Below, piece by piece: positions 26,216 to 59,861 of a stretch of DNA of 64,000 nucleotides; positions within the stretch are counted from its first letter, which is position 1; every line of letters starts with the position of its first letter. Location of the stretch: IMG/VR virus record IMGVR_UViG_3300017754_001832; one strand, given 5' to 3'. The position numbers and the translations under genes were made by a program. The notes under the pieces are model-generated. The model ran no database searches and was not told the origin of the DNA. It saw only the letters and a program-made list of their open reading frames with translations. Source of the stretch: a virus.

Positions 26216-26226
26216 TGGGTGATGTC

Positions 26227-26509: not shown

Positions 26510-26525
26510 ATTGAACGTCAACTCG

Positions 26526-29807: not shown

Positions 29808-29809
29808 GA

Positions 29810-32557: not shown

Positions 32558-32560
32558 GCG

Positions 32561-42327: not shown

Positions 42328-42772
42328 AGCGGTTGCCCTTCGAGACGTTTTCCAGCGCCGGAAGGTACTGGAGGTTGTTCAAAACATGCAGCCCCGAGAC
42401 GTTTTTCCCACGCAACGGGACAATGTGATCTACGTGATACCCCAAAGGACAGGCTTCGTAAAATCGCTCTATGGCTTTTAGATCGGCCCACGCGGGGGTC
42501 TGCTGAGACAAGCACGCACGGCGCTTGGCTTCCTTGGCGTTTTTCTTTCCGGGGTTGTTCCTCGCCCATGCGGCGATGGCGGCCCGATCCTTGGCTTTTT
42601 GTTCTTCGGATCGAGCCGCTTTAGACGCACGGACGCGGTCGGGGTGTCGCTGCCTGTATCGTTTGGCAGCCTCTCGTTTAGCCTCCGGGTTGCGGGCGGC
42701 CCAACCGTCTGCGGGGTTGCGCCGTTTCCACTCGCGTTGGGCCGCCCGCTGTTTGCTGATGTCGCGCGCCAT
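42314..42772 (-). CDS. HNH endonuclease (152 aa)
   Basis: HVDHIVPLRGKNVSGLHVLNNLQYLPALENVSKGN. Basic repeat-rich N-terminus. Wedged between the chaperone and tape measure genes. Confidence 0.8.
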   Translation of the reverse strand: MARDISKQRAAQREWKRRNPADGWAARNPEAKREAAKRYRQRHPDRVRASKAARSEEQKAKDRAAIAAWARNNPGKKNAKEAKRRACLSQQTPAWADLKAIERFYEACPLGYHVDHIVPLRGKNVSGLHVLNNLQYLPALENVSKGNRYGEA

Positions 42773-43179
42773 TAGCCTAGGATGTCTTGGTCTGAGCGTC
42801 TTTTGACGGGAGGAGGCAGGCGCGGATCGCGGCGTCCCTTGGTCGGGATGATCGCGGGCTTCGCGGTCTGCGTCTTCGTCTCCGCCGGCTCTTGCCCCTT
42901 CGATCCTCCACCGAGGTCGTTGAGCATTTTCTGAAAGCCCTTGGCGCCCTTCTTATCCATCACGGAGATGATCGCGCCCTGAGTCAGGACGGCGTTCGTG
43001 ATGAGTGCATCGTTGATGCGCTTCGTCAGGCGAGCCGCCTCTTGCCATACGGCGTAGAGGGGCCACCTGTCCGCGTCAGGGAAGCCGTGGGCCTTCAGGA
43101 GGCCGACTGTATTCCAGACACCATCGAGCCAGACGCGGAGGTTCGCAGGGCGCTCACGAGACCGTTGACGCCCCCGAAC
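42772..43179 (-). CDS. T-like extension frame of the tail assembly chaperone, reached by a -1 frameshift
   Basis: The -1 frame is open across the G stop and reads ...NLRVWLDGVWNTVGLLKAHGFPDADRWPLYAVWQEAARLTKRIN...DQDILG. The candidate slip region TTCGGGGGC (43171-43179) is not a canonical heptamer. Confidence 0.55.
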   Translation of the reverse strand, partial: VRGRQRSRERPANLRVWLDGVWNTVGLLKAHGFPDADRWPLYAVWQEAARLTKRINDALITNAVLTQGAIISVMDKKGAKGFQKMLNDLGGGSKGQEPAETKTQTAKPAIIPTKGRRDPRLPPPVKRRSDQDILG

Positions 43180-43664
43180 AGGCTGGTCACGGTCTCGATC
43201 AACTCCCCCACACCGCCATGATCCTCCAGCGTCAGCCGGGCGACCTCTTGGATGATCTTGAGTTGGACAGGGACCGGGAGGCGCTTCGCCACCTCGAACG
43301 CCTTGGTCTGGTCTGCGTCGTCGGTGACGAGCACAACCATGTCGGCGATGAGGTCGGGGAACTGCTCGACGAGTTGCAGGAGGATCGGGCCGAGATCGAG
43401 CGCGCTCTCCTCGACCGTGGTCGGGTCAACACCCTTGGCTACCGCAGCGTCGTGGATCAGCGTGTCGGCGTGAACCTTGTTGGCGATGGTGCGCTCGAAG
43501 ATCATCACCATGGTCGGGCCGTGGACCCGCATGAGTTTGACGAGGTCGCCTGCGGACAGGCCGCGCACTTGGATGTTCTGCTCGGGCTTGTCGCCCTTGG
43601 CCTTGCGGATGGTGATCTCGGCGGTTTCAAAGCCGATGGACGAAAGCTGACTGACGGACTTCAT
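43095..43664 (-). CDS. Tail assembly chaperone (gpG-like), 189 aa
   Basis: Internal ATG after AGAAGAGGG (MKSVSQLSSIGFE...). Position between the major tail and tape measure genes. Confidence 0.7.
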   Translation of the reverse strand: MKSVSQLSSIGFETAEITIRKAKGDKPEQNIQVRGLSAGDLVKLMRVHGPTMVMIFERTIANKVHADTLIHDAAVAKGVDPTTVEESALDLGPILLQLVEQFPDLIADMVVLVTDDADQTKAFEVAKRLPVPVQLKIIQEVARLTLEDHGGVGELIETVTSLFGGVNGLVSALRTSASGSMVSGIQSAS

Positions 43665-43748
43665 ATTTACCCTCTTCTGAAACGAGCCGGGGCCCGTAGC
43701 ATCTTGTGCCACGGGCCCCGGAAGATTGCAACCCAACTTCTACCTGTC

Positions 43749-44588
43749 TTAGGCGTAGGCGGGTCGGCCAAGGGCGTAGATCGCCGCGTAGCTGGTGGGC
43801 TTCAGGATTTCGACCTGGAACGGGATGACGTTCCACTCGTCCGACTTCAGCGCGTAGTCTCCGTTCGGGGAGACCTTGATCCACGGGAAGAAGTAGTCGA
43901 TGTCGTCGCCGACCGGGTTGAAGGCGATGAACTGCATCGCGCCTTCGACCGGCTCCGAACCCGAGAGGATGCGGTTGTAGGTCGAGGGACGGATCGTGTA
44001 CGTGACCTGAAGGTCCGTGCCGTCCGCGATGCCACCGCCAACGATGACGTACAGGCGGCCCGTCTCCGGATCGACCGTGTAGTCCGTGCCGTAGACGAAC
44101 TCCGTGTTGCCCGCCGAGTTCGAGTCGTTCTCGACAACCGTGAAGGCGCCGCCCGAGTTCGAGTCGGTGTCGCCACCGGCCACGAGGCCCTTCGCGCCGG
44201 CAGGGCGCGTGGTCGAGATGCCAAGCTGGTAGTAGAGGCCCTGCTCGACATCGTTGACTTCTTCGGCGGTGATCGTCGCACCAGCTTCCGTCACGACTTC
44301 TTCCTCGCCGAAGAAGAAGATGGCGACGTTCTTGATGTCGATGTTGTCGGTCGTGAAGGTGCCCGAGCGGTTGACCTGGAGAGCAATGCTCTCGTCCTTC
44401 TCGCGGATGCCGTGATCCGAGTTGAAGTGGTCGAGAACCTCTTGCTCGATGGTGAGCGAGAACTCCGGTGTGTTCCCGATATACCGGAAACCCTTTGGGG
44501 TTTGGGTGCCCGTGACAAAGCGGGCGAAACTGATTTCGCCACGACCCAGCGTGTAGTTGTTAGTGACAATGCCTTCGGTGGCGGCCAT
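43749..44588 (-). CDS. Major tail (tube) protein, gpV position (279 aa)
   Basis: Internal ATG after AGGAG (MAATEGIVTNNY...). Lambda-order synteny. Contains TDSNSG and NDSNSA. Confidence 0.75.
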   Translation of the reverse strand: MAATEGIVTNNYTLGRGEISFARFVTGTQTPKGFRYIGNTPEFSLTIEQEVLDHFNSDHGIREKDESIALQVNRSGTFTTDNIDIKNVAIFFFGEEEVVTEAGATITAEEVNDVEQGLYYQLGISTTRPAGAKGLVAGGDTDSNSGGAFTVVENDSNSAGNTEFVYGTDYTVDPETGRLYVIVGGGIADGTDLQVTYTIRPSTYNRILSGSEPVEGAMQFIAFNPVGDDIDYFFPWIKVSPNGDYALKSDEWNVIPFQVEILKPTSYAAIYALGRPAYA

Positions 44589-44665
44589 GGTGGTATCTCC
44601 TGCTGGCGGTGGTCCGTGTTCCTTACGTGTTACAGCCTCGCTGGCGTTGAAAGTCAACGCCTCAC

Positions 44666-45220
44666 TTAGCTGTACGGATTCTCCAAGTCCTCGGCGATCT
44701 TCAGCCGTATCGCGAGCCAGAAGTACGCCTTGCCCGAGACTTCATCCGGAGGGCGGCAGACCGGGCTCCCGATCTGCATTGAGATGACCCCCGGCTTACC
44801 ATTGGCCCCGCGAACACTCAACAGGGCAGGCCCAACGCCGGCCGGCGAGCGGCCCTGATCCAGCCGCTTCTTCTCTTTCGCGAGGCAGCGGCACACGTCG
44901 GCCACCAGAAGGTAGGCCGGATCGGTGGGGTTCGCCTTGTCGTCTTTGCAGAACCCCTGGATCGAGATGTCCCAATCGCCGGTCGAGTAGGGGGAGGATG
45001 CCGCAGAGTCGACCTGATCGTTGGCGATAGGCGTCTCCAGAATGGCGATCATCGGCAGGGGGTCGTTCTCCCCGTAGATGTTGCGGCCACGGAAGACGCG
45101 GCCCGCCAGATCGTGGTGGTAGCCGGTCGGCCCCGAGTTGGAATCCTCGATAGCGATGGTCTCCAGAAGCTCAGTGAGCTTGCGCATGACGCGGAGGCGG
45201 AAGGGGTAGGTCTCGGTCAT
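44666..45220 (-). CDS. Tail terminator, gpU position (184 aa)
   Basis: Synteny. Contains IEDSNSG. Confidence 0.6.
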   Translation of the reverse strand: MTETYPFRLRVMRKLTELLETIAIEDSNSGPTGYHHDLAGRVFRGRNIYGENDPLPMIAILETPIANDQVDSAASSPYSTGDWDISIQGFCKDDKANPTDPAYLLVADVCRCLAKEKKRLDQGRSPAGVGPALLSVRGANGKPGVISMQIGSPVCRPPDEVSGKAYFWLAIRLKIAEDLENPYS

Positions 45221-45819
45221 CAGACGTTCTCCAGCCCGAGTTGTCTCAGGTATTCGGTTTCGAGCGCGTTGGCGATCTCGTCTTCCATGTCGGGCCAGAT
45301 GCCCTTGCGCCCGCTCGCGCCGATCAGGGCTTGTGCGACCGAAGGACCATAGAGGAGCCAGAGGCTCTTAGCCAGCCGGCGCGGTCTGTAGGCCCCCGAG
45401 GGCTTGCCCGGTGAGCGCACGGCCAGCATCGTCGACTCTCCGCCCGCCTTGCCTACGCCAAGCAGGAACGCGCCCGGCAGGGCTCGCTGGCCTCCGGGTT
45501 GGACCTCGACTTTGATCTTGCCCTTCTTCGCGTTCGTGTTGGTCACGAAGCGTGCGAGGCCCGTAGGCCGCGACGCGGCGGTGAGCTTGCCTTCGAGCTT
45601 CCCGGCGCCCGCTGAGAACTGCTCGATCTTGCCGTCCTGCCCCGTGAGGTAGCGGGCAGGAAAGGCCACCTGCTGCCGCAGCATGCGGCCCGAGCGGGCC
45701 CGTGCGTCACGCAGGGTGCGGTTGATCGCACGCTGTGCGGCGATCTGCGACTTCTTCGGGATGTCTTCGAGATCGCGGAGAGACTTGATGCCGAGGATCG
45801 TCACGGAGAGGTTGGACAT
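45220..45819 (-). CDS. Minor tail / tail completion protein, gpZ-like (199 aa)
   Basis: N-terminus SVTILGIKSLRDLEDIPKKSQIAAQRAINRT resembles the gpZ family. Synteny also fits. Confidence 0.65.
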   Translation of the reverse strand: MSNLSVTILGIKSLRDLEDIPKKSQIAAQRAINRTLRDARARSGRMLRQQVAFPARYLTGQDGKIEQFSAGAGKLEGKLTAASRPTGLARFVTNTNAKKGKIKVEVQPGGQRALPGAFLLGVGKAGGESTMLAVRSPGKPSGAYRPRRLAKSLWLLYGPSVAQALIGASGRKGIWPDMEDEIANALETEYLRQLGLENV

Positions 45820-46260
45820 TTACTCCTCCGGAGGAAGAGGCAGCCCGGCCGAGTCTGCGGAATCCTGGCGCGTGACGCGAGCCGTGATCGTTTCCTGATC
45901 GTGCGGCTCGACCACGTCGATGTAGTACGACTCGCCACTCGTGACGGAGATCACATCGCCGCGCGCCGGGCTGATGCCCGCGTCTTCGAGTTCGGTGCGC
46001 CAGAAGATAACCCTCGGGACCGAGTCGAACCGCTCTGCGCTGTTGAGTGATGTGCCGGCTTGATCGCCGAGCTTCATGCCCTTCTCGTGGATGCGAACTT
46101 CCACGACGGGCAGGCCGTGCATGTTGCCAGAGGTCGAGCCCGAGAACGACGTGCTGTTGGAGTCGTTCTCGGGTGATCCGCCGACGAGATAGACGGCGCG
46201 GACCTTCAAAGTCTGGTGGACCGTTTCGCGGGCCGCCCGTTTGATGTCGCGCCATCCCAT
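45820..46260 (-). CDS. Head-tail connector, gpFII position (146 aa)
   Basis: Synteny. Contains ENDSNST. Confidence 0.55.
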   Translation of the reverse strand: MGWRDIKRAARETVHQTLKVRAVYLVGGSPENDSNSTSFSGSTSGNMHGLPVVEVRIHEKGMKLGDQAGTSLNSAERFDSVPRVIFWRTELEDAGISPARGDVISVTSGESYYIDVVEPHDQETITARVTRQDSADSAGLPLPPEE

Positions 46261-46261
46261 C

Positions 46262-46657
46262 TCAGTCTACCTTCTTCGCTGCCCCATTGAGGCCGGCGCC
46301 GAGGTCGGTCAAGTCGCGACGACGGCGGGTGGTTGTGGTCTTCTGTTCTGCTGCGGCCTTGGCGTCTGCGCGAACCTTGTCCGCTGCTTCCTTCATGGCC
46401 TTCTTCACCGCGACCTTTTCCGCGAGGCCGGGGGTCTCGGCGTCGAGACGCATACGGCGGGTCTTCGGATTGACGCGGGGGAGTTTAGCGAGAAATTCCT
46501 TCGCCTCTTTCGAGTCTGCCATTGCGGCGAAACCCTGCGCGAGGAGCGACTCGGCTTCCTTGTCCACGATGTCGGCGATCTCTCCGCCGTAGAACTTCGT
46601 GGGTCCGTCTTTGCCCACCTCGGTCGAGGTGGTGCCAACGAATAGTGCGATCTGCAT
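46262..46657 (-). CDS. Hypothetical head-associated protein, gpFI position (131 aa)
   Basis: Synteny. Strong RBS within the shared 17-mer CAGCACTAGAGGGAACT. Confidence 0.55.
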   Translation of the reverse strand: MQIALFVGTTSTEVGKDGPTKFYGGEIADIVDKEAESLLAQGFAAMADSKEAKEFLAKLPRVNPKTRRMRLDAETPGLAEKVAVKKAMKEAADKVRADAKAAAEQKTTTTRRRRDLTDLGAGLNGAAKKVD

Positions 46658-46730
46658 GTAGTTCCCTCTAGTGCTGATGGACTAAGGGGGCGGCCCGAGA
46701 GCCACCCCCTGTCCGGTTGACCAACTCGGG

Positions 46731-47801
46731 TTAGGAGTTGGAGTCTTCTTCCACGACCCGAGCATGGAAGCTGCGGTTCGGGAACGGCGAGATGGCGAGC
46801 GGCGCCGACTGCGTCATGATGTTCATCGCGGACGGGTCTTGCTCGACCCACATCTTCGTGAACACCGGCTGAGCGATCAGGTTCTCGATCTCCAGGATCG
46901 CGCCGTAGGCCGACACGCCACCGTAATCGGCAGCCGTGATGACCAGGTCACGCGGGTTCATGATGTCCACGTGGTTGCCGCTGTTGTCCTCGTAGAAGTC
47001 CTCGTAGAGGACCAGCGTGAGGCCCGGCAGCGAGCCGACCACGGTCCACGGAGCATCCGGCGTGCGCGCTTGGATCAGCGAACGCGCGATGGAGTTGCCC
47101 TCGCCGCCACGGACGTTGGTGTCCATGAGTTCGAGCAGCTTCGTGTTCGAGCGCATGACGCGCCAGACTTCACGACCCATCGTGACAACCGAGCCGCGTC
47201 CGCCGAAGTCAGCGTTCGCCATCGCGTCGGTGTATTCCTGGAGTTGCGCCACGATGTCCGTGGTGGAGTCCCAGAGGCCGGTCGTCTTGATGTCCGTGAG
47301 CGCGGTGTCGCGGCCATAGTCAACTTCGACGGTCGGGCCGTCCTGATACTCGACCAGCACCTTGCCGTAGGTCACGGCTTGGAAAGCCATGATCTCCTGG
47401 CGCCGCTCGATGATCTTGCGGTGATGCTCAAGGATCGCGGCGATCTCCGCGTCGCGGTTCTGAGCCGGCGAGCGAGGCGAGTCGTCGTAGAGGTTGCCGG
47501 GGCGGCGCGTGAACTGCTCGCCGGGGATCACCGGGTCTTTCAGCTTGATATAGGCCGGGCTGAAGGACGCGGCGGTCGAGCCACGGCGCCGGTAGGACGG
47601 GCGGCCGGGGTTCTGCGGCAGAGAGAACGTCGCGACCTCGCGGTTGCCGACGATCTTTTCCCAGATGATCGCTTGCTTGTCCGACTGGAAGATGTTGGAC
47701 GAGAAGCCGCCGAGATTCCGCCAGTAGTTGCTGACGGTTTCGAGGCGCTGGTCGCGGAATACGCCCAGCAGCGCACGGGGGGAGAGAACTTCGAGAGACA
47801 T
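46731..47801 (-). CDS. Major capsid protein, lambda gpE family (356 aa)
   Basis: Size, position after the decoration protein and general gpE-like sequence. C-terminus VVEEDSNS. A hairpin follows the gene. Confidence 0.8.
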   Translation of the reverse strand: MSLEVLSPRALLGVFRDQRLETVSNYWRNLGGFSSNIFQSDKQAIIWEKIVGNREVATFSLPQNPGRPSYRRRGSTAASFSPAYIKLKDPVIPGEQFTRRPGNLYDDSPRSPAQNRDAEIAAILEHHRKIIERRQEIMAFQAVTYGKVLVEYQDGPTVEVDYGRDTALTDIKTTGLWDSTTDIVAQLQEYTDAMANADFGGRGSVVTMGREVWRVMRSNTKLLELMDTNVRGGEGNSIARSLIQARTPDAPWTVVGSLPGLTLVLYEDFYEDNSGNHVDIMNPRDLVITAADYGGVSAYGAILEIENLIAQPVFTKMWVEQDPSAMNIMTQSAPLAISPFPNRSFHARVVEEDSNS

Positions 47802-47840
47802 TGGGGCGGCCCTTTCTTATCGGCTGCTGGACGGCGGGGG

Positions 47841-48290
47841 TTAGGACGGGGTGCCGGGGGTTGCGGTTGCGATCTGATCGACGCCGAGGGGCGTGCGGTC
47901 GAGAGCGCGGCGGAGGAGGGCGAGAGACCACGAAGCATCTTTCGCGATGACATCGTAGTTGAAGACGCCGTCCGTGTAGTAGGACACGTCCGTCACGTCG
48001 GCGCCGACTTCCGAGTTGGAGTCGCTGCCGCCCGAGTTGGAGTCATCGACCGCCACGACGGCGGAGGTGATGCCAACCGGCTCTTGCGAGCCGTCGGTGG
48101 CCGTCTGGACGGACGGAACGATCAGGCCCGTGCCGGTGACGCGGCCAACGAGCGTGTTGACGGGGATGTCAACAGTCGTCTTGCCACGGCCAACCATGGT
48201 GGGGGCCTTGAACCACAGACCGTTCGTCTGCGTGAAGGTGTCCGAGCTTTGAACCGGGACGCCGGGCGGGTTTGAAGTGAGGGCGGTCAT
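47841..48290 (-). CDS. Head decoration protein, gpD-like (149 aa)
   Basis: Position between the protease and the capsid gene. Contains DDSNSGGSDSNSE. Confidence 0.7.
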   Translation of the reverse strand: MTALTSNPPGVPVQSSDTFTQTNGLWFKAPTMVGRGKTTVDIPVNTLVGRVTGTGLIVPSVQTATDGSQEPVGITSAVVAVDDSNSGGSDSNSEVGADVTDVSYYTDGVFNYDVIAKDASWSLALLRRALDRTPLGVDQIATATPGTPS

Positions 48291-48327
48291 GTGACTTACT
48301 CCGTGGGGGTCTCAGGGGCTCGGCGGC

Positions 48328-49644
48328 TTAGTGCTTCGCGGTTGACTTGGGCTCGCCGAAGCGAGCGGCGAGGACGCGGGCCGCAGCAGCCGCATCTTTC
48401 TGTTCGGCGGTCATCTGCTCCTGCGTTTCCGAAGCAGCAGCGCCAGGGCCTTTGCCGGCGTCCGCCATGAGCTTGTCGAAGGCCGGGTTGCCGCTGTTGG
48501 TCGCGGTGTCGGCTTTCGGCTCGACCTTGGCCTCTTCCGGCATCTTGCCGAGGAACGCCTTGGCCTGATCGACCGTCATGTCCGTGTCCATGGCGCACGC
48601 TTCAGCGGCGGCCGGGCGGGTCTTGGCTTCGTCCAGACCCTTGATCGCGACGATGCGCTGCTTGGCTTCGGCACGGGCGGTCGCGGCGGCAGCCGCAATG
48701 GCGGCATCGTGATCGGCCTGCGGGACGGTCTTGGCTTCGGTTGACATCCTAGTATCTCCTGTGTCGCCCATGAGGTGGGCCGCAAATTCACTCATCGCCT
48801 CATCGAAGGCGCCAATGGCGTCGGCGAGTTGTTCCGTTACAGCCTCACTGGCGGTGAAAGTCAACGCCTCAGTCTTGCGGACTTTTGCGTCGCTGATTCC
48901 ACGGTTGCGGGACACCTGCGAACAGAACACGCCGTAGGTCTCGTCGATGCGGGATTGGATGCGGTCTTTCGCACCTTCCGAGAGGGCCTGGTACGGGTTG
49001 CCGTCCACCTTGTGTTTACCCGCGTAAATGAAGGTGATCTCGACGCCTTCCATCTCCATCGCCTTGGCGAAGTTGATGTGCATCGTGACCACGCCAATCG
49101 AGCCCACGCCACCCGTGCGGGAGACCGTGATCCGCTCTGCGGCGGAGGCCACCGCGTAGCCGGCGGAATAGGCGTGCTCGTGCGAGAAGGCGCGGATCGG
49201 CTTGACCGAGCGCGCGGCGTAGATGCGGTCGCAAAGCTCGAAGCACCCCGCGACGTGGCCGCCGGGGGTGTCGCAGACGAGGGCGATGCCCTTCACTTCG
49301 GGATCGGCGAGGCCGCGTTCGAGGGCCTTCTGGATGTAGTAGTATCCGGTGGCATACGAGCCAGCGGCATACGGGAAGTTGTGGAGCAGCGCACCCTTGA
49401 CGGGGATGTGCAGGATGCCCGCCTTGACGGTGTAGGGCTTGTACGCGGACTGCCAATCACCGGCTTGCGGCCAGTAGTCGTCGTGCATCATGTCGCCGTT
49501 GGCCGCAGCCATCAGCGCCGGGAAGTGGGTGTCTGCCGCTAGAGCGCGAATGCAGGCCGTGATGCGGTTCGACTGATCCGGAGCGACGAGGATCGGATCG
49601 AAGTCACCGCCGACGAGCGTGGAGAGTGCGAGGGGCTGGCTCAT
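48328..49644 (-). CDS. S49 family head maturation protease / scaffold, gpC-like (438 aa)
   Basis: GIALVCDTPGGHVAG and HAYSAGYAVASAA (ClpP/SppA-type Ser). Ala/Glu-rich C-terminal scaffold-like half. Confidence 0.85.
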   Translation of the reverse strand: MSQPLALSTLVGGDFDPILVAPDQSNRITACIRALAADTHFPALMAAANGDMMHDDYWPQAGDWQSAYKPYTVKAGILHIPVKGALLHNFPYAAGSYATGYYYIQKALERGLADPEVKGIALVCDTPGGHVAGCFELCDRIYAARSVKPIRAFSHEHAYSAGYAVASAAERITVSRTGGVGSIGVVTMHINFAKAMEMEGVEITFIYAGKHKVDGNPYQALSEGAKDRIQSRIDETYGVFCSQVSRNRGISDAKVRKTEALTFTASEAVTEQLADAIGAFDEAMSEFAAHLMGDTGDTRMSTEAKTVPQADHDAAIAAAAATARAEAKQRIVAIKGLDEAKTRPAAAEACAMDTDMTVDQAKAFLGKMPEEAKVEPKADTATNSGNPAFDKLMADAGKGPGAAASETQEQMTAEQKDAAAAARVLAARFGEPKSTAKH

Positions 49645-51350
49645 TCGGTTACGTCCTTCTTCTTCTCTTTCTTCGCCGGGTCCGTTTCGTTCGAGTCACG
49701 CGCGTCGCCGCTGATGGCGTTCTGCATGTTCGGGTCTTGGTCTATCGGCATCAGATCGTATTCCTTGAGAAGTTCCTTCTCGCGTTTTTTCTGCTTTAGC
49801 ACGCGGCGCCAATCGGCGCCATATGTGCGCGCAAGCTCGCGCTCCAGCGTCGAGAGGTTGTTGTTGATCTTCAGGACCGAGGCTTGCGTTTCCTTCAGTT
49901 CGTCGATCTGGTCGCGGCCAACGCCGAGCCATTCGCACTGCGTGTAGGCATCGCGGTTCATGCCCTCGTAGAAGTCGGGCTTGCCCTTCATGGTCTCCAG
50001 AAGGCCCTTGCCGACGGCCTCCTCGAACCACAGGCGGTAGATGTAGGTCGCGAAGCGATCCGCCACCATCCGCTTGCGCGAGGACATCGTCTTGTCGGTC
50101 TGGTTGAGCGCGGCGCGCAGCGACGAGTAATTCGACTGCGACGTGTCGCGGCTGAGTTCTTCGTAGGACACGCCGAGGTTCGCCGCGATGTAGCGGAGCA
50201 GGGACGACTCGAACTCGGTGCCGAGCGGGCCACCCTTGCCGGCCGGGCGCAGTTCGAGCTTCTGGCCGGGGAACAGGTGCGGGATGCGAACGCCGTCGAT
50301 GGAGAGCGAGCGCGATCCACCGGAGTATTCGTTGACCGCGCCGAGGTAGTTCTCGGCCCACGTCACGAGGTTGTCGTCGTCGCCAGTTCCCAGAGCCTCA
50401 TACGCCTGGCTCGGAAGCTCGGCTTCGATGGAAGCCGCGAACGTCGCGTTGACGACCGCGTTCTGGAGGTTGATGTCGCGCCACTTCTTCGTGATCCGCA
50501 TCTCTTTGAGTGCGGACACGAGATCGGAGATGCCGCGCGTCTAGTCGATGCGCTGTTGCTCCATGATGTGGATGATGCGCTGGCGGCCCCATGCGGTGCG
50601 GGCCGGATAGTTCGACCACTTCGAGGCATCCTCGGGCCGGGACATCGCAACGTCTGACGGGTGCGCGTCGCGAATCCAATAGCTGATCGGAGCGCCATAG
50701 TAGTCACGCTCGACGCCGGCACGCAGGCGGCCCTGCGGCAGCCCACCATACGGGTTCGAGAGACGGTCGCTCTCGATCATCTGGATCGCGGTCTGATAGG
50801 GCCGCGCCATCGACGAGCGCATGTATTCGGCGGAGGCGAGGACTTCGCCGCTCGCGAGGTAGACGCCGACCGCAAGGCGCACGAGGCCCGTCAGCGTGTT
50901 GTGGCGCGAAGCGTCGGGCCAGTTGTCGGGGCTCTCTGCCCACAGACCGAACTTGCTCTCGACCTCTTCCTGAAATTCCTCTTCCCACTTCTCGTCCTTG
51001 ATGCCGAGAGCGAGCGCGTTCGGCTTGGCCGAAAGCATGAACATCGAGCCGACCACGCCGTCCCGGTGGAGGCGTTCGCCGGCTTGCACGTAAGCGTCGT
51101 TCCGCAGCACGTCGCGTGCCCGGCCGGTGGCTTCGTCCCGTTCGTCGAGGATGTCCGCGTCGGCGGAACGCAGGGCGGGCGACCAGAGGGCCAGGTCGCG
51201 GTTCGTCTTCGACGCGCCTTCATGCGCGCCGCCTACAAGGGCGAGGTCTCGGCCCGGCCGCACGCGAGAGGGTTGCGCGTTTGACCGGGACCGATCCTCT
51301 CCCGAGGGAGCTTCGATTCCGAGGATGTCTTCAATGCTGCGACGAGTCAT
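49641..51350 (-). CDS. Portal protein, lambda gpB family, interrupted by an in-frame TAG at 50541-50543
   Basis: The two track ORFs 49641..50519 and 50541..51359 share a frame, with 7 sense codons plus one TAG between them. SYEELSRDTSQSNYSSLRAAL is portal-like. ATGA start at 51350. Confidence 0.8.
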
Positions 51351-51583
51351 CCCATCCACACCTTGATCGGGCCAGAGCGCGTAGACACTTCGGCGAGTTG
51401 ATCCGTGAGTTCCTGAATGTAGGCTTTCAGCGCCGCACGGTTGGCCGGCGTGTATTCCACCCGCTCACCGTTCTGATCGACGACCACACGCGGCGCTCCG
51501 CCGACGACGAGGTTGTGATACGCGGTCTCGGCAGCGGTCTTGCGCGCCGTCAGAGTCGCTATTTGTGCGGATGTAAGCGCCAT
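51347..51583 (-). CDS. Head-tail joining protein, gpW-like (78 aa)
   Basis: Internal ATG after GAGGG (MALTSAQIATL...). Position between terminase and portal. Confidence 0.65.
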   Translation of the reverse strand: MALTSAQIATLTARKTAAETAYHNLVVGGAPRVVVDQNGERVEYTPANRAALKAYIQELTDQLAEVSTRSGPIKVWMG

Positions 51584-51645
51584 ATCTGAGCCCTCGGCAT
51601 GATTGCAAGCAATAACCTTGAGCCGCCCGGAATGCAACCGGACGG

Positions 51646-53721
51646 TCAAGCCATGGATTCTCCCAAGGCGGAGAGCTTCTTACGGGGCTTTGCCTTGCTC
51701 ACAAAGCCACCTGCGGCGGGGCCCGAGATCACGAGATCGTTGTGGTCCCATTCCTTGGCCCAACCCGGCGGTGTGTCCCAATCCATCGTCTCGCCACGGA
51801 TGCGCGCGTCGATCTGGAGAGACACGACGTAGTAGAGCAAGTCCCACGCTTCGTTGCGGCGACCCTTGCCGGTCGTCTCCCACCCTTTCGGTGTGCGGAC
51901 CTCGGCGGTCAACTGCGTGTAGAGCCAATCCTCGGCCCAACGAGGGAAGTGAACCATGCCGCCGCCGGGCTCGGTCCTGCCGAGCATCGCGTAGGCCGTG
52001 TCCTTCTGGAGGTTCGAGTTGATGAAGCCCACAGGGATGTCGCCGCGTGCGCCGGCCTTGCGATCCTTGCGCTGCGAATCCGGGTGATGGATTTTGTATC
52101 GCTGCGCAGTCTTCGACGGCTCGCCCTTCAGCAGTTGGAACCGTTTGTGGTGGCCGCCCGGGTGAGTGTCGCGGAGCCAGCGCCAGAAGTTGTAGGCGTT
52201 CGTCGTGACGCCTTCCTTACCGCCCGAGTCGCAGCCCACGAGCTTGATCTGCATGTGGCGGCCCGAACCATCGGCGAGCGGGTACGTGCGCTCGATCACC
52301 TGATCGACGAGCAGGTGCCAATCTTCAGGATACGCGGCGGGGTCGATGGGCTCGGGGTCGCCGTCCACGTCGAGTCGGAGCGACTTGCGAATCTTGAACA
52401 TGTCCACGTGCCAGACATCGCCACCAACGCCGAAGCCGTAGACATGCACGACGAAGGTCGAGCGCATGCCGGCCTGCACGTCGATGGTCGCCATCATGTA
52501 GCGGACACCGTGAGGCACGACCGGCTCGCGTTGTGAGCCACCCCAATCCTCGGCGCGTGCCTTCAGTTCCTCGGGCAGGCGCTCGGACATCAGCGCCTTC
52601 GGGATGTACGCCTCGCCCTGGTCCACGTTGACGGTGGACTTCAGTGATTGCTCGGAGCCGGTCTTCTCGTATTCCTCGCTCGCCTTCAGGAAGTTGAAGA
52701 CGAGGGTCTGCCATGTCGCGAACGCGGCGGCCGGGCCCTTGAGCCAGAAGCTCGCGATCTCGCTTCGCACCGGAGTCCCCGTGATGCGACCGTCCTGCTG
52801 CCAGACCTGCCCGTCGCGAATCCATTTGCCGCCGAGGTTGAGACGGTGCTTCTGCGAGTGCTGGATGTGCGTCAGGCAGTGCGGGCACTCCATGGTGGCG
52901 CGCTCGGACTTGAACACGTCGTCGCCTTCCTCGGGCCACTGAAGCAGGCTGAAGGACGGCTCGAACTTGCCACGGCAATCAGGGCACTCCCAGAACCAGC
53001 GGCGCCGGTCGCCACGGTTGAACAGCGAGAGGATGCCCTTGGTCGGCGGAGCTTCGTGCTTGCTGCTGGCGATCCACTTCGGGTTGTCCACCGTGAAGCC
53101 CGGCGAGGACTCCGCCACGGTCATGCCGAAGCGGCGGAACGTCGTCGCGCGTTTGCGTGCCAGATCGAAGGGCGAGCCTTCGCCGTCGATGTCCTCGGGC
53201 ATGCGGTCGTAGTCAGTGAGCCACAGGCGCGGGATCGGCTTACCCGAGAGTTCGGAGATCGCAGGGTGGCCGAGGGTGAGCAGCATCCCACTGCGGAACT
53301 GCGTGTCGAACACGTTCTCGTCGAGCGTCCTCTCGCGAAGCTGCGGCACGTCGCGATAGAGACGCGAGAGACGACGGAGCGAGAAGTCGCGGGCTGCCGT
53401 GTTCGTCGGGTTGATGATGAACATGTCTGCCGGATCGCAGATCGCGGAGTACGTGACCCAACTCAGGAATGGGTCGGTCTTACTGGCCTGCGCCGGGCCG
53501 ACAAACACTGCACCCGTGTATTCGTGGGAAGTCAGCGTGTCCTGAAACTCGACGCTGTAGGGCGCGATGCTGCGGATGTACGGGCCGACGTAGTTGCCGG
53601 GGTTGTCCATCCAGCGATACTTCTCGGCGGCCTCGGTGACAGACAGGCGCTCGGGCGGGCGCACGGTCTCAGCCGCAGAAGCGACCATGTCTTCGAGACA
53701 GAGGAACTTAGGCCCCTTCAT
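51646..53721 (-). CDS. terL: Terminase large subunit, lambda gpA family (691 aa)
   Basis: Walker A-like VFVGPAQASKTD. Size and synteny fit. Zinc-finger-like CPDCRGKF...CPHC. Confidence 0.9.
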   Translation of the reverse strand: MKGPKFLCLEDMVASAAETVRPPERLSVTEAAEKYRWMDNPGNYVGPYIRSIAPYSVEFQDTLTSHEYTGAVFVGPAQASKTDPFLSWVTYSAICDPADMFIINPTNTAARDFSLRRLSRLYRDVPQLRERTLDENVFDTQFRSGMLLTLGHPAISELSGKPIPRLWLTDYDRMPEDIDGEGSPFDLARKRATTFRRFGMTVAESSPGFTVDNPKWIASSKHEAPPTKGILSLFNRGDRRRWFWECPDCRGKFEPSFSLLQWPEEGDDVFKSERATMECPHCLTHIQHSQKHRLNLGGKWIRDGQVWQQDGRITGTPVRSEIASFWLKGPAAAFATWQTLVFNFLKASEEYEKTGSEQSLKSTVNVDQGEAYIPKALMSERLPEELKARAEDWGGSQREPVVPHGVRYMMATIDVQAGMRSTFVVHVYGFGVGGDVWHVDMFKIRKSLRLDVDGDPEPIDPAAYPEDWHLLVDQVIERTYPLADGSGRHMQIKLVGCDSGGKEGVTTNAYNFWRWLRDTHPGGHHKRFQLLKGEPSKTAQRYKIHHPDSQRKDRKAGARGDIPVGFINSNLQKDTAYAMLGRTEPGGGMVHFPRWAEDWLYTQLTAEVRTPKGWETTGKGRRNEAWDLLYYVVSLQIDARIRGETMDWDTPPGWAKEWDHNDLVISGPAAGGFVSKAKPRKKLSALGESMA

Positions 53722-54337
53722 CTTCGTCCACCTCTATCGAGGGGTCGGGCCCGTGGTCGAGCGCGCTCAGCGTGTTCTGATGCTTCGGCATCTCGACAAG
53801 AGCCCGGTAGAGGTCTTCACGGAGCGCGTCGACTCTGGCGATCAGGGCGAGGTACTGCTCGCGCGGCATCCCCGCTTCACGCTCCACGTCGTCGGCCCAC
53901 ACCTGCGTCGTCTGCTTGATCCGCTTGAACGCCTCGGCGAGGACCGAGAGCACGCTCTCGGTCGGCCAGAGTTCGCCGGCTGCCTGCTGATACTTGAGCC
54001 GTTTGTTTTCCGCGTCCCAGAACTCTTTGCGGAGCATCGGGGGAAGTTCCGTCGGGTTCATGGTCTTGATGTAGTCGCGGATGTCGAAGCGCGGCTTGAT
54101 GAGGTAGGAGAGCGCCAGCAGCGGGTCGTAGAGTTCGGAGCCCGACATCTTCCCGATGGCAGGGCAATCGCTCAGCCGTTTCTTGACGGTCTTGCGATCC
54201 ATGCGCGTGAAACCGCCAAGCCACGTGAGCGAGACCCCCTTGCGGAGCTTCGCCCAATCGGTCTCGACCGTTTCGCGCTCGACCTCCTCGGCTTCGTTGC
54301 CGAGCAGATCGTCGAGGTTGCGGCGGCTGCGCGCCAT
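53708..54337 (-). CDS. terS: Putative terminase small subunit (209 aa)
   Basis: Lies directly upstream of and overlapping terL. N-terminal HTH-like segment. Confidence 0.55.
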   Translation of the reverse strand: MARSRRNLDDLLGNEAEEVERETVETDWAKLRKGVSLTWLGGFTRMDRKTVKKRLSDCPAIGKMSGSELYDPLLALSYLIKPRFDIRDYIKTMNPTELPPMLRKEFWDAENKRLKYQQAAGELWPTESVLSVLAEAFKRIKQTTQVWADDVEREAGMPREQYLALIARVDALREDLYRALVEMPKHQNTLSALDHGPDPSIEVDEDEGA

Positions 54338-54909
54338 CAGACTTCACCCTTCATGTATCGGAGCACGGCTTCGATCTCCTCGACGGTGCCGTTGCCCTTT
54401 AACTCGTTAGCACGCCACGAGATTACACGCACGTTGCCTTTAACGTATCCGAGGGCGGGCACGATCTTGTCAAGACTCGGGCTGGTTGGGCAGTTACGCC
54501 CTCCGCCTACTTTTAGTTCGAGCCCAAGGACCGGACACCTCTCAGGGAGCACAATGTCTGAAGGCTCGATGTCGAAAGGAAGACCCGCTTCCTCCGCACG
54601 AGCCTTGGCCCCGCGCCACGTCACCTTCGCCCACTGTTCCGGCCTTCGGTATAACGAGTTCAACTGTTTCTTGACCTTCTCGCGAAAAGCAGGATCGGCT
54701 TCATACTTCTTAACGTGCCAATCGGCCCTACGGGTGTTATCTTTCTTGCGTTGAATTGGGTCAGCCTTCCGGCTGCGATCAACGGCTTTCTGTTTCTCTT
54801 GGCGGCTTGCCCACGCGGCAGGGTCCGCTTTGATAGCGGCGTACCTTTCCCTGTCTCGATCCGCGTCTCGCTTCGTTCGGGTTCTCACCGCCAGTGTTCC
54901 TTTATCCAT
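54337..54909 (-). CDS. HNH endonuclease, endonuclease VII-like (190 aa)
   Basis: CPVLGLEL...SPSLDKIVPALGYVKGNVRVISWRANELKGN. Next to the terminase genes, as in HNH-assisted packaging systems. Confidence 0.8.
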   Translation of the reverse strand: MDKGTLAVRTRTKRDADRDRERYAAIKADPAAWASRQEKQKAVDRSRKADPIQRKKDNTRRADWHVKKYEADPAFREKVKKQLNSLYRRPEQWAKVTWRGAKARAEEAGLPFDIEPSDIVLPERCPVLGLELKVGGGRNCPTSPSLDKIVPALGYVKGNVRVISWRANELKGNGTVEEIEAVLRYMKGEV

Positions 54910-55658
54910 GGGCTGATCGCCTGCCGCTCAGGCTTCCAGGGGCTATGGGGTCCGTTGCACTGCACGACTCGTGCCCCTGCCGGCAGGGGTCCACCCGTGG
55001 GCTCGTGCTTCAGTTGATCGACGAGATTGCGCTGGCGCCACGAGGCGTAGTGCCAGAGGTTACGCGGGCAGATGTCGTCGCGATAGCAGTAGAGGCCGTC
55101 CTCGCGAGTGATCTTCGTGATCTTGTGGTTGGCCTTGATCGCCAGCCACGCCTGATCGCTGCCGCCGTAGCGCAGGCCGCGACCCTTGACGTTGTTCTGC
55201 CAGAGGTTGCGGTCGAACTCGGTGAAGACCTCGGGAGCGACGCCGTGGTCCGCGATGACGATGGAGCCGTTCACCGGCTGCGGGCCAAGCTCGACGCCCG
55301 ACATGAGGAACGGCTCGGTGCGACCGAAGATCGGACTGCAGTCGTCAACGAGGACCATGTCGAGATCGAACCACGACCAGCGCGGCTCGGGGATGATGTT
55401 GCGGAACGAGTTGTCGAAGCACTTCAGACGAACGAGGCACTTGCCGCCTTGATCGGCGAGGTCATTCCACAGCGGCACGACCTGGTCGCCCTCTGCCTTG
55501 AAACGCTCGCGAGTCTTCTTCGAGTCGGAGATCACCACGATCCGGTACGGGATGTGGAGGTTCCGACCGAGCATGTTCTTCATTATCCGGATGTAGTCGT
55601 CGGAGAACTTGTCTCCCCACGACCACAGGATGATCGGCAGCACGTTAGGCGATGTCAT
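54885..55658 (-). CDS. Putative GT-A glycosyltransferase (257 aa)
   Basis: Internal ATG (MTSPNVLPIILWSWGDKF...). DxD-like WFDLDMVLVDD. GGSDQAWL. Confidence 0.45.
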   Translation of the reverse strand: MTSPNVLPIILWSWGDKFSDDYIRIMKNMLGRNLHIPYRIVVISDSKKTRERFKAEGDQVVPLWNDLADQGGKCLVRLKCFDNSFRNIIPEPRWSWFDLDMVLVDDCSPIFGRTEPFLMSGVELGPQPVNGSIVIADHGVAPEVFTEFDRNLWQNNVKGRGLRYGGSDQAWLAIKANHKITKITREDGLYCYRDDICPRNLWHYASWRQRNLVDQLKHEPTGGPLPAGARVVQCNGPHSPWKPERQAISPWIKEHWR

Positions 55659-56265
55659 GTTCTTGTCCCTCTGGGAGATATGGGTAGGCTTTGAGCGCGG
55701 AGTCGGGATTGAGGTTGTAGACAGCAACCCCACGTTTTTTGAGATCGGCAGGCTGGCGCGCGAGGCCCCACTGCTGGCGTTTGTAGCGATCATTCCAATC
55801 CTCAGTCAGCGTGCCCGTGAAGTGGCGTTCCTTGTTCGGGCCGGGCTTCACGTCCACGCCCACCAGAAGGATGCGGCGCGATCCACGGAGCACCGCGTAG
55901 TTGATGGCGAGCGCGGTCGTCGTGAATGTTCCGCGTAGTTCGGCCGGGTTCTTCGAGAGCCCGCCGCCGGCCACCTTCGGGATGAACCGGATGCGGTCGT
56001 CGTGAAGCTCGGGCGGCAGGGGCTTCGGGTCCGTGTAGAGGATCAGCGGCCCCTTGTAGCCAGACAGGTCTGGCGTGCGGCGCGCGTACCGATGATCGCC
56101 GATCATCAGCACCTCGGCGTGAGGCACCTTCAGGTAGCCGTCCTTGACCGCTATCGTCTTCAGGCCCGCGATGCGCTCGAAGTTGAACGAGTTCACCGAC
56201 GGGCCCGAGGCGACGATAGCGACCGTGCAGCCAGCCCAATCACGAGGGACGACGTGAGACTTCAT
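55645..56265 (-). CDS. DUF115 / Maf-like putative glycosyltransferase (206 aa)
   Basis: IVASGPSV glycine loop, TIAVKDG, SRRILLVGVDV. Parallels the 26834..27562 product. Confidence 0.5.
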   Translation of the reverse strand: MKSHVVPRDWAGCTVAIVASGPSVNSFNFERIAGLKTIAVKDGYLKVPHAEVLMIGDHRYARRTPDLSGYKGPLILYTDPKPLPPELHDDRIRFIPKVAGGGLSKNPAELRGTFTTTALAINYAVLRGSRRILLVGVDVKPGPNKERHFTGTLTEDWNDRYKRQQWGLARQPADLKKRGVAVYNLNPDSALKAYPYLPEGQEHDIA

Positions 56266-56831
56266 TCGTCAGTCGAACCGATGCCATCATTCTTGAACGG
56301 GCGCACGAGCACCGCGAGTTCAACGCCGATGCGCTTGGGCTTGATCGGATCAACCTCGACCACCTCGGCGAAGTGCTTCTTCAGGCGCTCCATCCACCAC
56401 TTCGTCGGCTTGACGATGAGGTGCGCGTTGCGACCGTCGGCGAGGGTCTTGTTCGCCAGGCGTTGCGAGATCACCAGCAGGCCGCGCACCTTAACGAGCG
56501 AGGCGATGTGCTCCAGCACGTTGTCGAGCATGTCCGGTTCTACGTGCTCCAGAACGTCGTTGCAGGTGACGAAGTCTGCCGGCTTCGGCATCTGCGGCGC
56601 GGTGACGGGGTCATAGCCCTGTGTCGCCACCATAGGCGCGCGGGCCGCGATCTCAGCGAGCAGGTTGCCCTTGCCGCAGCCGTAGTCGAGATACGAGAGG
56701 GCGCCGGCACCCGTCATGTAGTCGAGCACGCGGTCGGCCCACGCATCGCCCTTGCCGCCGTACTTCGCCTTGCGGCCATGAAGCTCAGCGTTGAGCGCGC
56801 GATACTGTTCGGAGATGAGTGGCTTGGTCAT
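56262..56831 (-). CDS. Class I SAM-dependent methyltransferase (189 aa)
   Basis: Motif I LDYGCGKG. Has DVLEHVEPDML. ATGA overlaps at both ends. Confidence 0.75.
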   Translation of the reverse strand: MTKPLISEQYRALNAELHGRKAKYGGKGDAWADRVLDYMTGAGALSYLDYGCGKGNLLAEIAARAPMVATQGYDPVTAPQMPKPADFVTCNDVLEHVEPDMLDNVLEHIASLVKVRGLLVISQRLANKTLADGRNAHLIVKPTKWWMERLKKHFAEVVEVDPIKPKRIGVELAVLVRPFKNDGIGSTDE

Positions 56832-57367
56832 TTGATCCTCGTGATGAGCACAGCAAGTTCGGATGCGGCTTTCGTCTCGTCGAGGATAGGAACCTCTTCG
56901 ATTCTGTAGGGGCCTGCGAAAGCGACGGCGATGGTCTGGAGCCACCACTCGCGCGGCTTCACCAGCGGGTGCGTGTCGCGCTTCTTCGGCGAGCGGTTGC
57001 GCAGCGAGATCGTGATGAGGGCGCCGTTGCGAGCGCAGCGGCGGATGTCGGTGAGGACCGCGTCATACATGCCGACCTCTACGTGCTCCATCACGTCGAT
57101 GCAGGTCACGAAGTCGGCGGGCATCGGCGTGATGTCGCCGAACGCAGGCTCATACGACGTGCCGGTGAAGTGCAGGCCGTCGGGGTGTTCGAGAACGTGG
57201 TACGCGAGGGCGCTTCGACCAGCGCCGTAGTCGAGGATCGACTCCGAGGCCGTCTGGTGCATGTAGGCCACGACACGGTCGGCCCATCGGTGCCCGATGA
57301 TGCCGAAGTTCGGGTCGCGGTCGTGCAGCGCCTTCAGACGCTTGCGGTGCTCGACGGTGATGGTCAT
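56828..57367 (-). CDS. Class I SAM-dependent methyltransferase, paralogue (179 aa)
   Basis: LDYGAGRS and DVMEHVEVGMY. Same architecture as the neighbouring gene. Confidence 0.7.
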   Translation of the reverse strand: MTITVEHRKRLKALHDRDPNFGIIGHRWADRVVAYMHQTASESILDYGAGRSALAYHVLEHPDGLHFTGTSYEPAFGDITPMPADFVTCIDVMEHVEVGMYDAVLTDIRRCARNGALITISLRNRSPKKRDTHPLVKPREWWLQTIAVAFAGPYRIEEVPILDETKAASELAVLITRIK

Positions 57368-58077
57368 TGCTTGTTCGCTCGCTGCGCTTCGATCTCTGCC
57401 GCCGCGTGGACCCACAGGTCTGCGAAGCGAACGCTCTTGTGGTTGTAGAACCACGGGCCACCGTTGGTGTAGTGGATGCCGGCCGGCGGCTGCGCGCTCT
57501 CCCACTCATACTCGCCTTCGAGCCAGTTCCACGTCTGCGGAACGCCGAGGATTTGATGTTCCGCGATCCAGTTGAAGCGGTGCAGGTCGGCGGCCTTGGC
57601 GCTGTTCACATACTCCGGTGTCAGTTGCCGACACTGCGGGTTGTTGAACAGCATCAGCGACGACCAATTCTTGCGGGGGTACGCGACCTGGGGCTGCCCA
57701 TCCATCTTGAAGGCGGCCTTGGGCGTGTAGTCGTGCTTCACGAGGGCGACGCCGTACTGCACCGGCTGCACCTTGTCCTGCTCGCCACGGACGAAGTCGA
57801 GGAGGCTCTTGATGTCGCGGGTGAAGAGGAAGTCGCAATCCACGAAGAGGGCCGTGCCCTTGTAGCCGCACAGGTAGGGCACGAGGAAGCGGGTGTGGGC
57901 GAACTCGGTCGAGGCGGGCTCGTCTGCCGGGCGGGTGTAGATACCCCGCTCCCGCAGCTTGTCCTGCTTCAGGCCGACGATGGCGAGCGGGATGGATGTG
58001 TGGGCGCGGAGCGAGGCAGCGCAGACCTCGAACGCGGCGTGTTCTCTGGCGTCGTAGCCGATGAAGACGTGTAGCAT
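57364..58077 (-). CDS. GT8-like glycosyltransferase (237 aa)
   Basis: Internal ATG (MLHVFIGYDARE...). DxD ALFVDCDFLF. KNWSSLMLFN. Confidence 0.6.
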   Translation of the reverse strand: MLHVFIGYDAREHAAFEVCAASLRAHTSIPLAIVGLKQDKLRERGIYTRPADEPASTEFAHTRFLVPYLCGYKGTALFVDCDFLFTRDIKSLLDFVRGEQDKVQPVQYGVALVKHDYTPKAAFKMDGQPQVAYPRKNWSSLMLFNNPQCRQLTPEYVNSAKAADLHRFNWIAEHQILGVPQTWNWLEGEYEWESAQPPAGIHYTNGGPWFYNHKSVRFADLWVHAAAEIEAQRANKQ

Positions 58078-58112
58078 GTCAGTTCCCTCTAGTGCTGCCT
58101 TATAGCGCGGCC

Positions 58113-59564
58113 CTACCGCAATCGCAACTCTCGGTCGATGTCTTCTTTCGTGATCCGGACCCGGCTCCTCAGATCGTCCTCTTCGGCCTGTTTTACGGCC
58201 TGGTTGTAGATCACGTCCTCGTCCCGCGTGCCCCGTGCGAGGATGTGGCGGATGTAGACGTGCGGGGCCTCTTGGCCGGGCCGAGGCAGACGCATGTTCA
58301 ACTGCCGGTAGGTCTCGCCCGATTCCTGTAGGCCGTACCAGATCAGGTTGTGGCCGCCGTACTGCATGTTGGTCCCGTGCGAGATGTTGCCGGGGTGGAC
58401 TGCGAGGTTCCTGATCTTGCCTGCGTTCCAATCTTTGATCGCGTTCTTCCCGTACTCGTCGAAGAAGACGACCTTCTTCCCGAACCGCTTCCTGATCGCT
58501 TCCTTGTCGAACTTGTAGCTCCACGCGATCAGGGCGTGGTGCCCGTCGAGATCGCGGATCATGTCTTCAAGCACGTTGAGTTTGTAGTCGTGAACGAAGA
58601 TCGCGTTTCCACGTTCGCGGTACATCGACCCGTTGGCCCACTGAAGCTGCTTGCTCGTGAGCACTGCGGCGTTGATCGCTTCGATGTCGCGCTTCTCATC
58701 GTAGTTCTCACGGGAGAATTTTTTATACTCGCGCATGAGCGACGGCGGGAAGTCTACCCACCGTGTCGTGAAGGGGTGCGTGATGACCGGCGGGAGCTTG
58801 ATGTGGTCCTCGGCGCGCAGCGAGATCATCAGGTCGGAGCACCTATCCATGATCTCGTCTTTGGCGCCGGGTCGAGGCTTCAGCGTGAAGCCGTTGTAGC
58901 TCTTGGAGAACCACCGCTCCTCGAAGTCGGATTTCTTGATGCCGAGTCGCTCGCCGCCGTCGAGCACGTACATGAGACCCCACATGTCGTGGACGCCTTC
59001 GGGAGACGGTGTGCCGCTCATCTCGATCACGCGCTCGCACATCTTGCGCGCACGCGCGAGGATGCCGAAGCGTGATAGCGGCTTCGAGCCTTTGCCGCCG
59101 CCGGCTCGTGTGGTGCGCTTGCGGCCTTCCTTCAGCATGGACGCTTCGTCGATGACGAGCGTGTTCCAGAACCACCCGTCTTCGCCGCCGATCACCTCCC
59201 AGAGCCACGCGAGGTTTTCCTTGTTGATGATGTGCAGGTCCACGTCCTTGTCGAGCGCGGCGAGACGTTCGGCCGGGGTGCCACACATCACCGCGTAGGT
59301 GATGCCGCGAAGGTGTCGCCATGTGGCGATCTCGGTCGGCCACGTATCGGTGGCGACGAGCAGCGGCGCGATGACGAGGCCGCGAAAACGCTTGCGGCGC
59401 TGCTGCTTCCGCTTCTCTTTGTCCTCGGCGACGAAGTCCAGCACGGCCTCGGTCTTGCCCAACGACATGTCGATGGCAAGCAGGGCCGAATCCATATCGT
59501 GACACTTCATGGTCGCGAAAAGCTGGTATCCACGTCGCTCGAAGTCAAAGCGGGTCTTAGGCAT
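58113..59564 (-). CDS. SNF2-family helicase (483 aa)
   Basis: Motif I-like MSLGKTE, DEAx box VIDEASMLK, and C-terminal helicase motifs. Confidence 0.85.
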   Translation of the reverse strand: MPKTRFDFERRGYQLFATMKCHDMDSALLAIDMSLGKTEAVLDFVAEDKEKRKQQRRKRFRGLVIAPLLVATDTWPTEIATWRHLRGITYAVMCGTPAERLAALDKDVDLHIINKENLAWLWEVIGGEDGWFWNTLVIDEASMLKEGRKRTTRAGGGKGSKPLSRFGILARARKMCERVIEMSGTPSPEGVHDMWGLMYVLDGGERLGIKKSDFEERWFSKSYNGFTLKPRPGAKDEIMDRCSDLMISLRAEDHIKLPPVITHPFTTRWVDFPPSLMREYKKFSRENYDEKRDIEAINAAVLTSKQLQWANGSMYRERGNAIFVHDYKLNVLEDMIRDLDGHHALIAWSYKFDKEAIRKRFGKKVVFFDEYGKNAIKDWNAGKIRNLAVHPGNISHGTNMQYGGHNLIWYGLQESGETYRQLNMRLPRPGQEAPHVYIRHILARGTRDEDVIYNQAVKQAEEDDLRSRVRITKEDIDRELRLR

Positions 59565-59859
59565 AGGGGCCGAGCTTCAGTGCTTTGCGGGCCTGGTCGT
59601 GCGTGTCGCAGACGTAGACGTGATGGCCTGCGGCCTTGAGTTCGCGGTGACGCTTCAACTGCCGGCCATCCGGCGGCTCGCCGACCTTTTTGTATTCGAT
59701 GATGACCGGCTGCGGGTGATCCTTGCGGAAGTGCCAACGGTCGGGGCAGCCCCCGATGCCGATGATCTGCATCTTCCACACGAGCCAGCCGGCACGCTCA
59801 GCTTCCCCGTCGGGGCCGCTGATGTCGAGTTCGAGCACGATTTCTTTGGGCGTCGCCAT
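59557..59859 (-). CDS. VRR-NUC domain nuclease (100 aa)
   Basis: Internal ATG (MATPKEIV...). GCPDRWHF...VIIEYKK (D...E-x-K). Confidence 0.7.
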   Translation of the reverse strand: MATPKEIVLELDISGPDGEAERAGWLVWKMQIIGIGGCPDRWHFRKDHPQPVIIEYKKVGEPPDGRQLKRHRELKAAGHHVYVCDTHDQARKALKLGPYA

Positions 59860-59861
59860 TA

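Follow-up and report, generated by a model that had tools for sequence, protein, structure and literature searches.

Classical amber (sus) mutants of phage portal genes are known, for example in gene B of lambda. In-frame TAG codons are also found in phages using genetic code 15, such as crAss-like and other gut phages, in which TAG is recoded to Gln. A TAG at a Gln position of a late structural gene has been reported as the signature of such phages (10.1101/2021.08.26.457843; PMC9523058), and the decoding of TAG as Gln in code-15 phages has been validated (PMC9523058). According to the first of these sources, recoding is associated with low GC (10.1101/2021.08.26.457843). Here, a TAG codon interrupting the portal gene of the virus record IMGVR_UViG_3300017754_001832 was analysed within a stretch of 64,000 nucleotides, referred to below as the window. 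The TAG is very probably a non-programmed single-base substitution (Gln270>amber) private to one contig, the normal gene being a 569-codon portal gene with CAG at this codon.

The amber codon in a lambda-type portal gene

The portal gene is located on the minus strand at positions 49641..51350 and comprises 569 codons followed by TGA. A minus-strand TAG at 50543..50541 breaks it at codon 270, and the open reading frames on either side, 50541..51359 and 49641..50519, lie in a common reading frame. The minus-strand DNA reads ...ATG GAG CAA CAG CGC ATC GAC TAG ACG CGC GGC ATC TCC..., with the changed base at 50543 (T on the minus strand, A on the plus strand), and translation across the site gives ...IMEQQRID*TRGISDLVSALKEM..., in which the motif TRGIS follows the stop. 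Under the standard code, an N-terminal fragment of 269 aa is expected from 50541..51350 (minus strand; P0143), while the C-terminal remnant of 286 aa was called by JGI from an internal ATG (MRITKKW...) at 49641..50501 (minus strand; P0122). Both fragments are recorded only from JGI/IMG, on a contig of 68,473 nt.

With the stop masked, a single PF05136 (Phage_portal_2) match spans the TAG, covering residues 50-425 with an E value of 2.3e-81 and a score of 274 bits against a cut-off of 32.9, which places the protein in the lambda family of portals. In addition, the joined portal aligns end to end with the portal of structure 8vhx (E 3e-150) and with lambda gpB of structure 8k38 (E 1.9e-75). The uninterrupted protein itself is on record as P0001 (569 aa), which is 100% identical to the read-through product of the window apart from Q270, and the portal gene of the window differs from this intact allele at one of its 1,710 nt, showing no further decay. 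A sequence-only reading of the window had proposed that an in-frame TAG interrupts the portal and that both open reading frames belong to it, and the frame together with the Pfam match across the stop bears this out.

The same reading had pointed to a conserved Gln in a Q-x-R-G motif at this position. Both 8vhx and lambda gpB 8k38 carry Q-T-R-G where the window has stop-T-R-G, the codon-270 column is Gln in all 120 of the best database homologues (54-100% identity), and a Gln codon occupies the position in 48 of 48 related loci retrieved from genome contigs with an alignment as query, as CAG in 41 and CAA in 7; a single portal protein used as query against these contigs returned no match. The full-length frame fails at codon 270 in the window and is intact in three relatives (L001, L002 and L057), all of which carry CAG, in agreement with the further claim that TAG lies a single C-to-T step from the expected codon.

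Two other interpretations of the interrupted frame were considered and rejected. A functional split portal is unlikely because all relatives encode one chain and the break falls inside the Pfam domain, and insertion of pyrrolysine or selenocysteine at the TAG is unlikely because the column is an invariant Gln and the near-identical sibling has CAG. As a separate observation, the amber change newly creates a CTAG palindrome (50541..50544), a tetranucleotide that is scarce in the window with 41 sites observed versus 95 expected (ratio 0.43); GTAC is low too (0.53).

Genome organisation and physical ends

The window consists of phage DNA from end to end, with a GC content of ~63% and a lambda-like head and tail module on the minus strand from 25 to 62 kb. 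The order of this module is a DUF1441 small terminase-like gene, a GpA-type TerL, gpW, the portal, an S49 protease/scaffold, a decoration-like gene, Phage_cap_E and the tail genes, which include a tape measure of 1661 aa. Upstream of the portal, the large terminase gene (GpA_ATPase and GpA_nuclease domains) is found at 51646..53721, and the end of the gpW-like head-completion gene at 51347..51583, mapped to the window from L001 9768..10004, overlaps the portal start. On the other side, the S49 protease/scaffold gene (48328..49644) overlaps the portal stop and is followed by the major capsid protein gene (Phage_cap_E, 46731..47801), both of which, like the others, are encoded on the minus strand. 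In the 99.99%-identical locus L001, gene calls and Pfam labels give the head-module order TerL-gpW-portal-protease/scaffold-major capsid protein.

The same minus-strand interval also encodes a replication module comprising DNA polymerase A, an SNF2 helicase and an ssDNA-binding protein, and a prim-pol/VapE gene is found in a relative's counterpart of the last ~4.5 kb of the source contig. Among cultured phages, the closest at the DNA level are siphoviruses of ~59-70 kb infecting Achromobacter, Ruegeria and Rhizobium, with ~66% identity. In IMG/VR, the closest relative is IMGVR_UViG_3300017780_003691 (69,747 nt); it begins within ~10 nt of the window start and extends ~4.49 kb past the counterpart of window position 64000, and no terminal overlap is seen. 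Taken as a whole, the source contig (~68.5 kb) looks like a complete linear siphovirus genome and not a prophage. Positions 1..120 of the window and 1..120 of the retrieved sequence L007 start homologously, and the contig ends (L003) match as well, which suggests fixed physical genome ends lying far from the terminase genes at 51.6-54.3 kb. Ends in such a position are not what is usually seen with a terminase of the lambda GpA type.

These features bear on whether the interrupted gene might be a long-standing pseudogene of a prophage that is cryptic or in decay. Alphaproteobacterial chromosomal prophages do contain members of this portal family, for example in Bradyrhizobium, Mesorhizobium and Sphingomonas, and a precedent for an in-frame stop is offered by a locus of Aeromonas popoffii CIP 105493 (NZ_CDBI01000063.1). 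Against this, the Pfam and PHROG labels across the window, which do not cover every small open reading frame, include no host gene and no integrase, the phage encodes replication proteins of its own, both contig ends fall where those of the relative do, and one disabling lesion only is seen, the portal being otherwise unchanged over its length. A defective or cryptic prophage, as one of the readings offered from the sequence, is thus left unsupported by DNA that is all of phage origin with fixed ends, no integrase found and a single lesion, and we consider an old prophage pseudogene very improbable. In the A. popoffii locus, the stop lies in frame within the tblastn alignment of the portal homologue, which may be a pseudogene and serve as a baseline case.

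Outside the head and tail module, two regions stand apart. The left 8.4 kb (window 1..8400) holds 26 of the 41 CTAG sites of the window and has a weaker GC3 coding bias, and its plus-strand open reading frames match only PHROGs of unknown function. A blastn comparison of 1..8400 with the same region of the closest IMG/VR relative gave no similarity, and for the 530-aa protein at the left end, no relatives were found in viral contigs. The region looks like a fast-evolving or exchanged early-gene module. The second region, 17903..25000, contains a plus-strand cluster of nucleotide-metabolism and modification genes, including MazG (17903..18436), a protein with a dATP/dGTP diphosphohydrolase N-terminal domain (PF18909; 18426..18914), an MT-A70 methyltransferase (23623..24291) and a dNMP-phosphatase-like gene (24410..25000). 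The same interval encodes a 624-703-aa protein matching phrog_1745 ‘DNA transfer protein’, a dCMP deaminase, a GapR-like DNA-binding protein and a Band_7 protein. Such a gene set hints at DNA with a modified base or at altered dNTP pools. A Z-genome (diaminopurine), considered on the basis of the MazG and dATP/dGTP-diphosphohydrolase genes, finds no support, as no PurZ-type protein (PF00709) appears among the precomputed or scanned Pfam labels.

Private substitutions and possible decoding of the TAG

The intact portal P0001 is encoded by the Logan contig SRR10520207_102533 (48,396 nt), which was compared with window 13882..61350 (47,469 nt) in three overlapping pieces (L056, L004 and L001). 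The two sequences differ at four positions only, one of them codon 270, where the Logan contig has CAG. The same codon is found at 99.99% (L001), 96.8% (L057) and 88% (L002) nucleotide identity, and over 547 portal codons, L057 (JGI 3300022407) differs from the window by 47 synonymous changes, the sole non-synonymous one being CAG versus TAG. The presence of CAG in related genomes, which the sequence-only reading had named as the finding that would make the TAG a simple error, is therefore documented in all three.

Exact protein look-ups confine the window alleles to the JGI contig of 68,473 nt, of which the window accordingly represents the first 64 kb, and trace the ancestral alleles to the Logan contig alone; proteins identical in both assemblies are recorded from both sources. 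A sister sample, assembled as Logan SRR10520208 and as IMG 3300017780, shows no difference between the two over 16.8 kb (100% identity). On the simplest reading, SRR10520207 and the JGI metagenome of the window would represent one sample assembled twice, disagreeing at four sites. Exact look-ups of two portal fragments and of the tape-measure, 784-aa and 354-aa proteins returned nothing on record; the 784-aa protein has its start called differently elsewhere (769 aa), the 354-aa protein carries one of the four differences, and for the tape measure, the miss occurs although window and Logan contig share the same DNA there. Likewise, the GTG start of the minus-strand gene 35211..36281 is given as Val in the JGI record and as Met in Logan (P0147 versus P0144), and identical genes therefore look different in exact-match look-ups. 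A search of the viral contig collection for the exact 33-mer over the site gave 0 matches for both alleles, and a degenerate TAG-specific motif pattern gave 0 matches in the JGI metagenome contigs, the source contig evidently lying outside the searched collections.

All four differences alter a protein. On the minus strand, these are CAG>TAG (Q270*) at 50543 in the portal, with CAG in L001, L002 and L057; GTT>ATT (V316I) at 48699 in the S49 protease/scaffold gene, with Val in the outgroups L002 and P0139; and GGC>AGC (G254S) at 36583 in a 354-aa tail-region gene (36278..37342), with G at this base in the outgroup L006 (GCC). The fourth, AAC>CAC (N143H), lies on the plus strand at 24836 in the dNMP-phosphatase-like gene, with AAC in the outgroup L005. 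The outgroups side with the Logan contig at all four sites, and every change is therefore derived in the window; for the portal, the result is a single CAG>TAG transition in an essential gene, its polarity fixed by three outgroups.

Three of the four belong to the G:C>A:T class. In the absence of selection, this class of change would be expected to split in these genes into 43% synonymous, 53% missense and 3.8% nonsense. Under this model, the probability of four non-synonymous changes out of four is ~0.14, and under the regime of fixed divergence it is ~0.012, both being weak statistics with n=4; the 4:0 one-sidedness toward the window is likewise weak, with four sites only. Between L001 and L002, ten genes show 468 synonymous and 233 non-synonymous codon differences and 0 nonsense, and for the portal taken by itself the counts are 85 synonymous and 19 non-synonymous, its two halves both being conserved. 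Because the fixed divergence of the lineage is mostly synonymous and without nonsense, the four private changes look, by sequence comparison, unfiltered by selection. No common deaminase or methylation context was seen at the three G:C>A:T sites, whose flanks are CCA, ACG and CCG.

The unselected-looking changes and the lack of further portal decay argue that the TAG is either very young or not real, and neither an old pseudogene nor a maintained trait. At roughly even odds or slightly better, the TAG is a consensus-level artefact or an unfixed minority variant taken up by the JGI assembly. A polymorphism or processing difference fits assemblies that disagree at four sites only, with every derived allele on the JGI side. 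A routine pipeline artefact is made less likely by the perfect agreement of JGI and Logan assemblies over 16.8 kb in the sister sample, by the number of consensus errors it would require, four per 47 kb being high for Illumina data, and by the G:C>A:T bias, which is that of a natural mutation or damage spectrum. A somewhat less favoured but still substantial possibility is that the TAG is a genuine, very young loss-of-function allele carried only by co-infecting CAG siblings. Such siblings are documented in SRR10520207, an SRA run adjacent in number to the run of the JGI sample with the related phage. A real allele at high frequency is harder to accommodate, as a lethal point mutation would have no route to rise in a lytic population.

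If the TAG is real, the consequences for the particle can be outlined. Under the standard code, translation would end after residue 269, and the C-terminal half of the portal domain, which holds the most conserved portal stretch (...LGTEFESSLLRYIAANLGVSYEELSRD..., with invariant columns), would be missing. With this half lost, a TAG genome would be unable to build its own proheads and would presumably depend, for packaging, on proheads whose portal protein comes from a co-infecting wild-type genome. The sequence itself offers no provision for decoding the TAG.

Decoding of the TAG as Gln, locally or throughout the genome as in genetic code 15, was nevertheless weighed, since a TAG at a Gln position of a late structural gene is the signature outlined above. 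All six frames were scanned for stops with coding-like composition to either side, and among the in-frame TAGs of the 64 kb so found, that of the portal alone lies on the coding strand of a real gene. The other TAG matches lie antisense to known genes, and the TGA and TAA matches are ordinary gene boundaries sharing a frame. TAG also serves as a terminator, as the sequence-only reading had pointed out for the genes ending at 25853 and 26227 and for several plus-strand genes; the genes ending at 25853, 26227 and 58113 make up 3 of 39 called minus-strand genes, and several coding-like plus-strand open reading frames end in TAG as well. The relatives all carry CAG or CAA, the codon change not being common to close relatives, and the GC content is the opposite of the low-GC setting of recoded phages. 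Recoding is thus effectively excluded, and local recoding, which had been listed among the possible readings, is contradicted by the lack of a second in-frame TAG and by the use of TAG as terminator. Two pairs of neighbouring tail and head genes on the minus strand share one frame across a single stop, a TGA at 32561..32563 and a TAA at 45820..45822; these are probably coincidence and not readthrough, because relatives call separate genes.

A lethal-looking amber could also be circulating in natural virions, through a host suppressor tRNA, through leaky Gln readthrough by a near-cognate tRNA-Gln reading UAG (followed by A), or through complementation by siblings. Because the TAG exactly replaces a Gln codon, insertion of Gln would yield the wild-type protein; the contig resembles a complete linear genome with ends as in the relative, which fits packaged DNA; and no other damage is seen in the portal gene. 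Leakiness can occur in amber mutants of low-copy proteins, and 12 portal subunits are needed per virion. On the other side, the allele is found on one contig only and the near-identical sibling has CAG. ARAGORN identified no tRNA in the window or in the fetched parts of relatives (L001-L006), which include the relative's counterpart of the ~4.5-kb end; the source contig's own last 4.47 kb lies outside this search. A phage-encoded suppressor tRNA with a CUA anticodon, for which a search had been proposed, was accordingly not found in the sequences covered. Moreover, the TAG is accompanied by three other private changes that look unselected, which points to noise or a very recent mutation and not to a maintained allele. 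A viable, circulating amber is improbable on these grounds, though less so than a prophage pseudogene or recoding. Of the four readings that had been listed without a choice between them, error is retained, with a very recent null allele beside it, local recoding is contradicted and a defective prophage is left unsupported.

Implications and comparison with known systems

The case calls for caution, as a late phage gene in which TAG exactly replaces an invariant Gln codon takes on the appearance of code-15 recoding, and it is the near-identical sibling assembly that exposes this TAG as a private one-base change. It also illustrates that a public metagenome contig can hold several unselected protein-altering differences compared with an assembly probably of the same sample. 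Gene calls are affected as well, the portal being stored as the two fragments P0143 and P0122. Should the allele be real and frequent in the reads, it would constitute a small natural case of a defective genome kept by complementation or suppression, and a circulating amber would represent a naturally occurring ‘sus’ mutant captured in a metagenome.

With respect to family, the Q-T-R-G motif and gene order, the locus resembles the lambda gpB-type portals (PF05136; 8k38 and 8vhx), from which it differs in that the frame is broken at the invariant Gln. The code-15 phages, i.e., crAss-like, Lak and related phages, likewise have TAG in a late structural gene where homologues have Gln. The window differs from them in having one such site and not many, in retaining TAG as a terminator, in its high GC, in having close relatives with CAG and in that no suppressor tRNA was found. 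The lambda B amber alleles resemble the change itself, as C>T turns CAG to TAG in an essential portal gene with the rest intact, and the wild-type protein would be regained through a suppressor that inserts Gln. However, those alleles are laboratory mutants selected on suppressor hosts, whereas the present one belongs to a metagenome-assembled contig and is known from the assembly only. Among known systems, a classical amber mutation thus lies closest, with code-15 recoding a superficial parallel whose hallmarks fail here.
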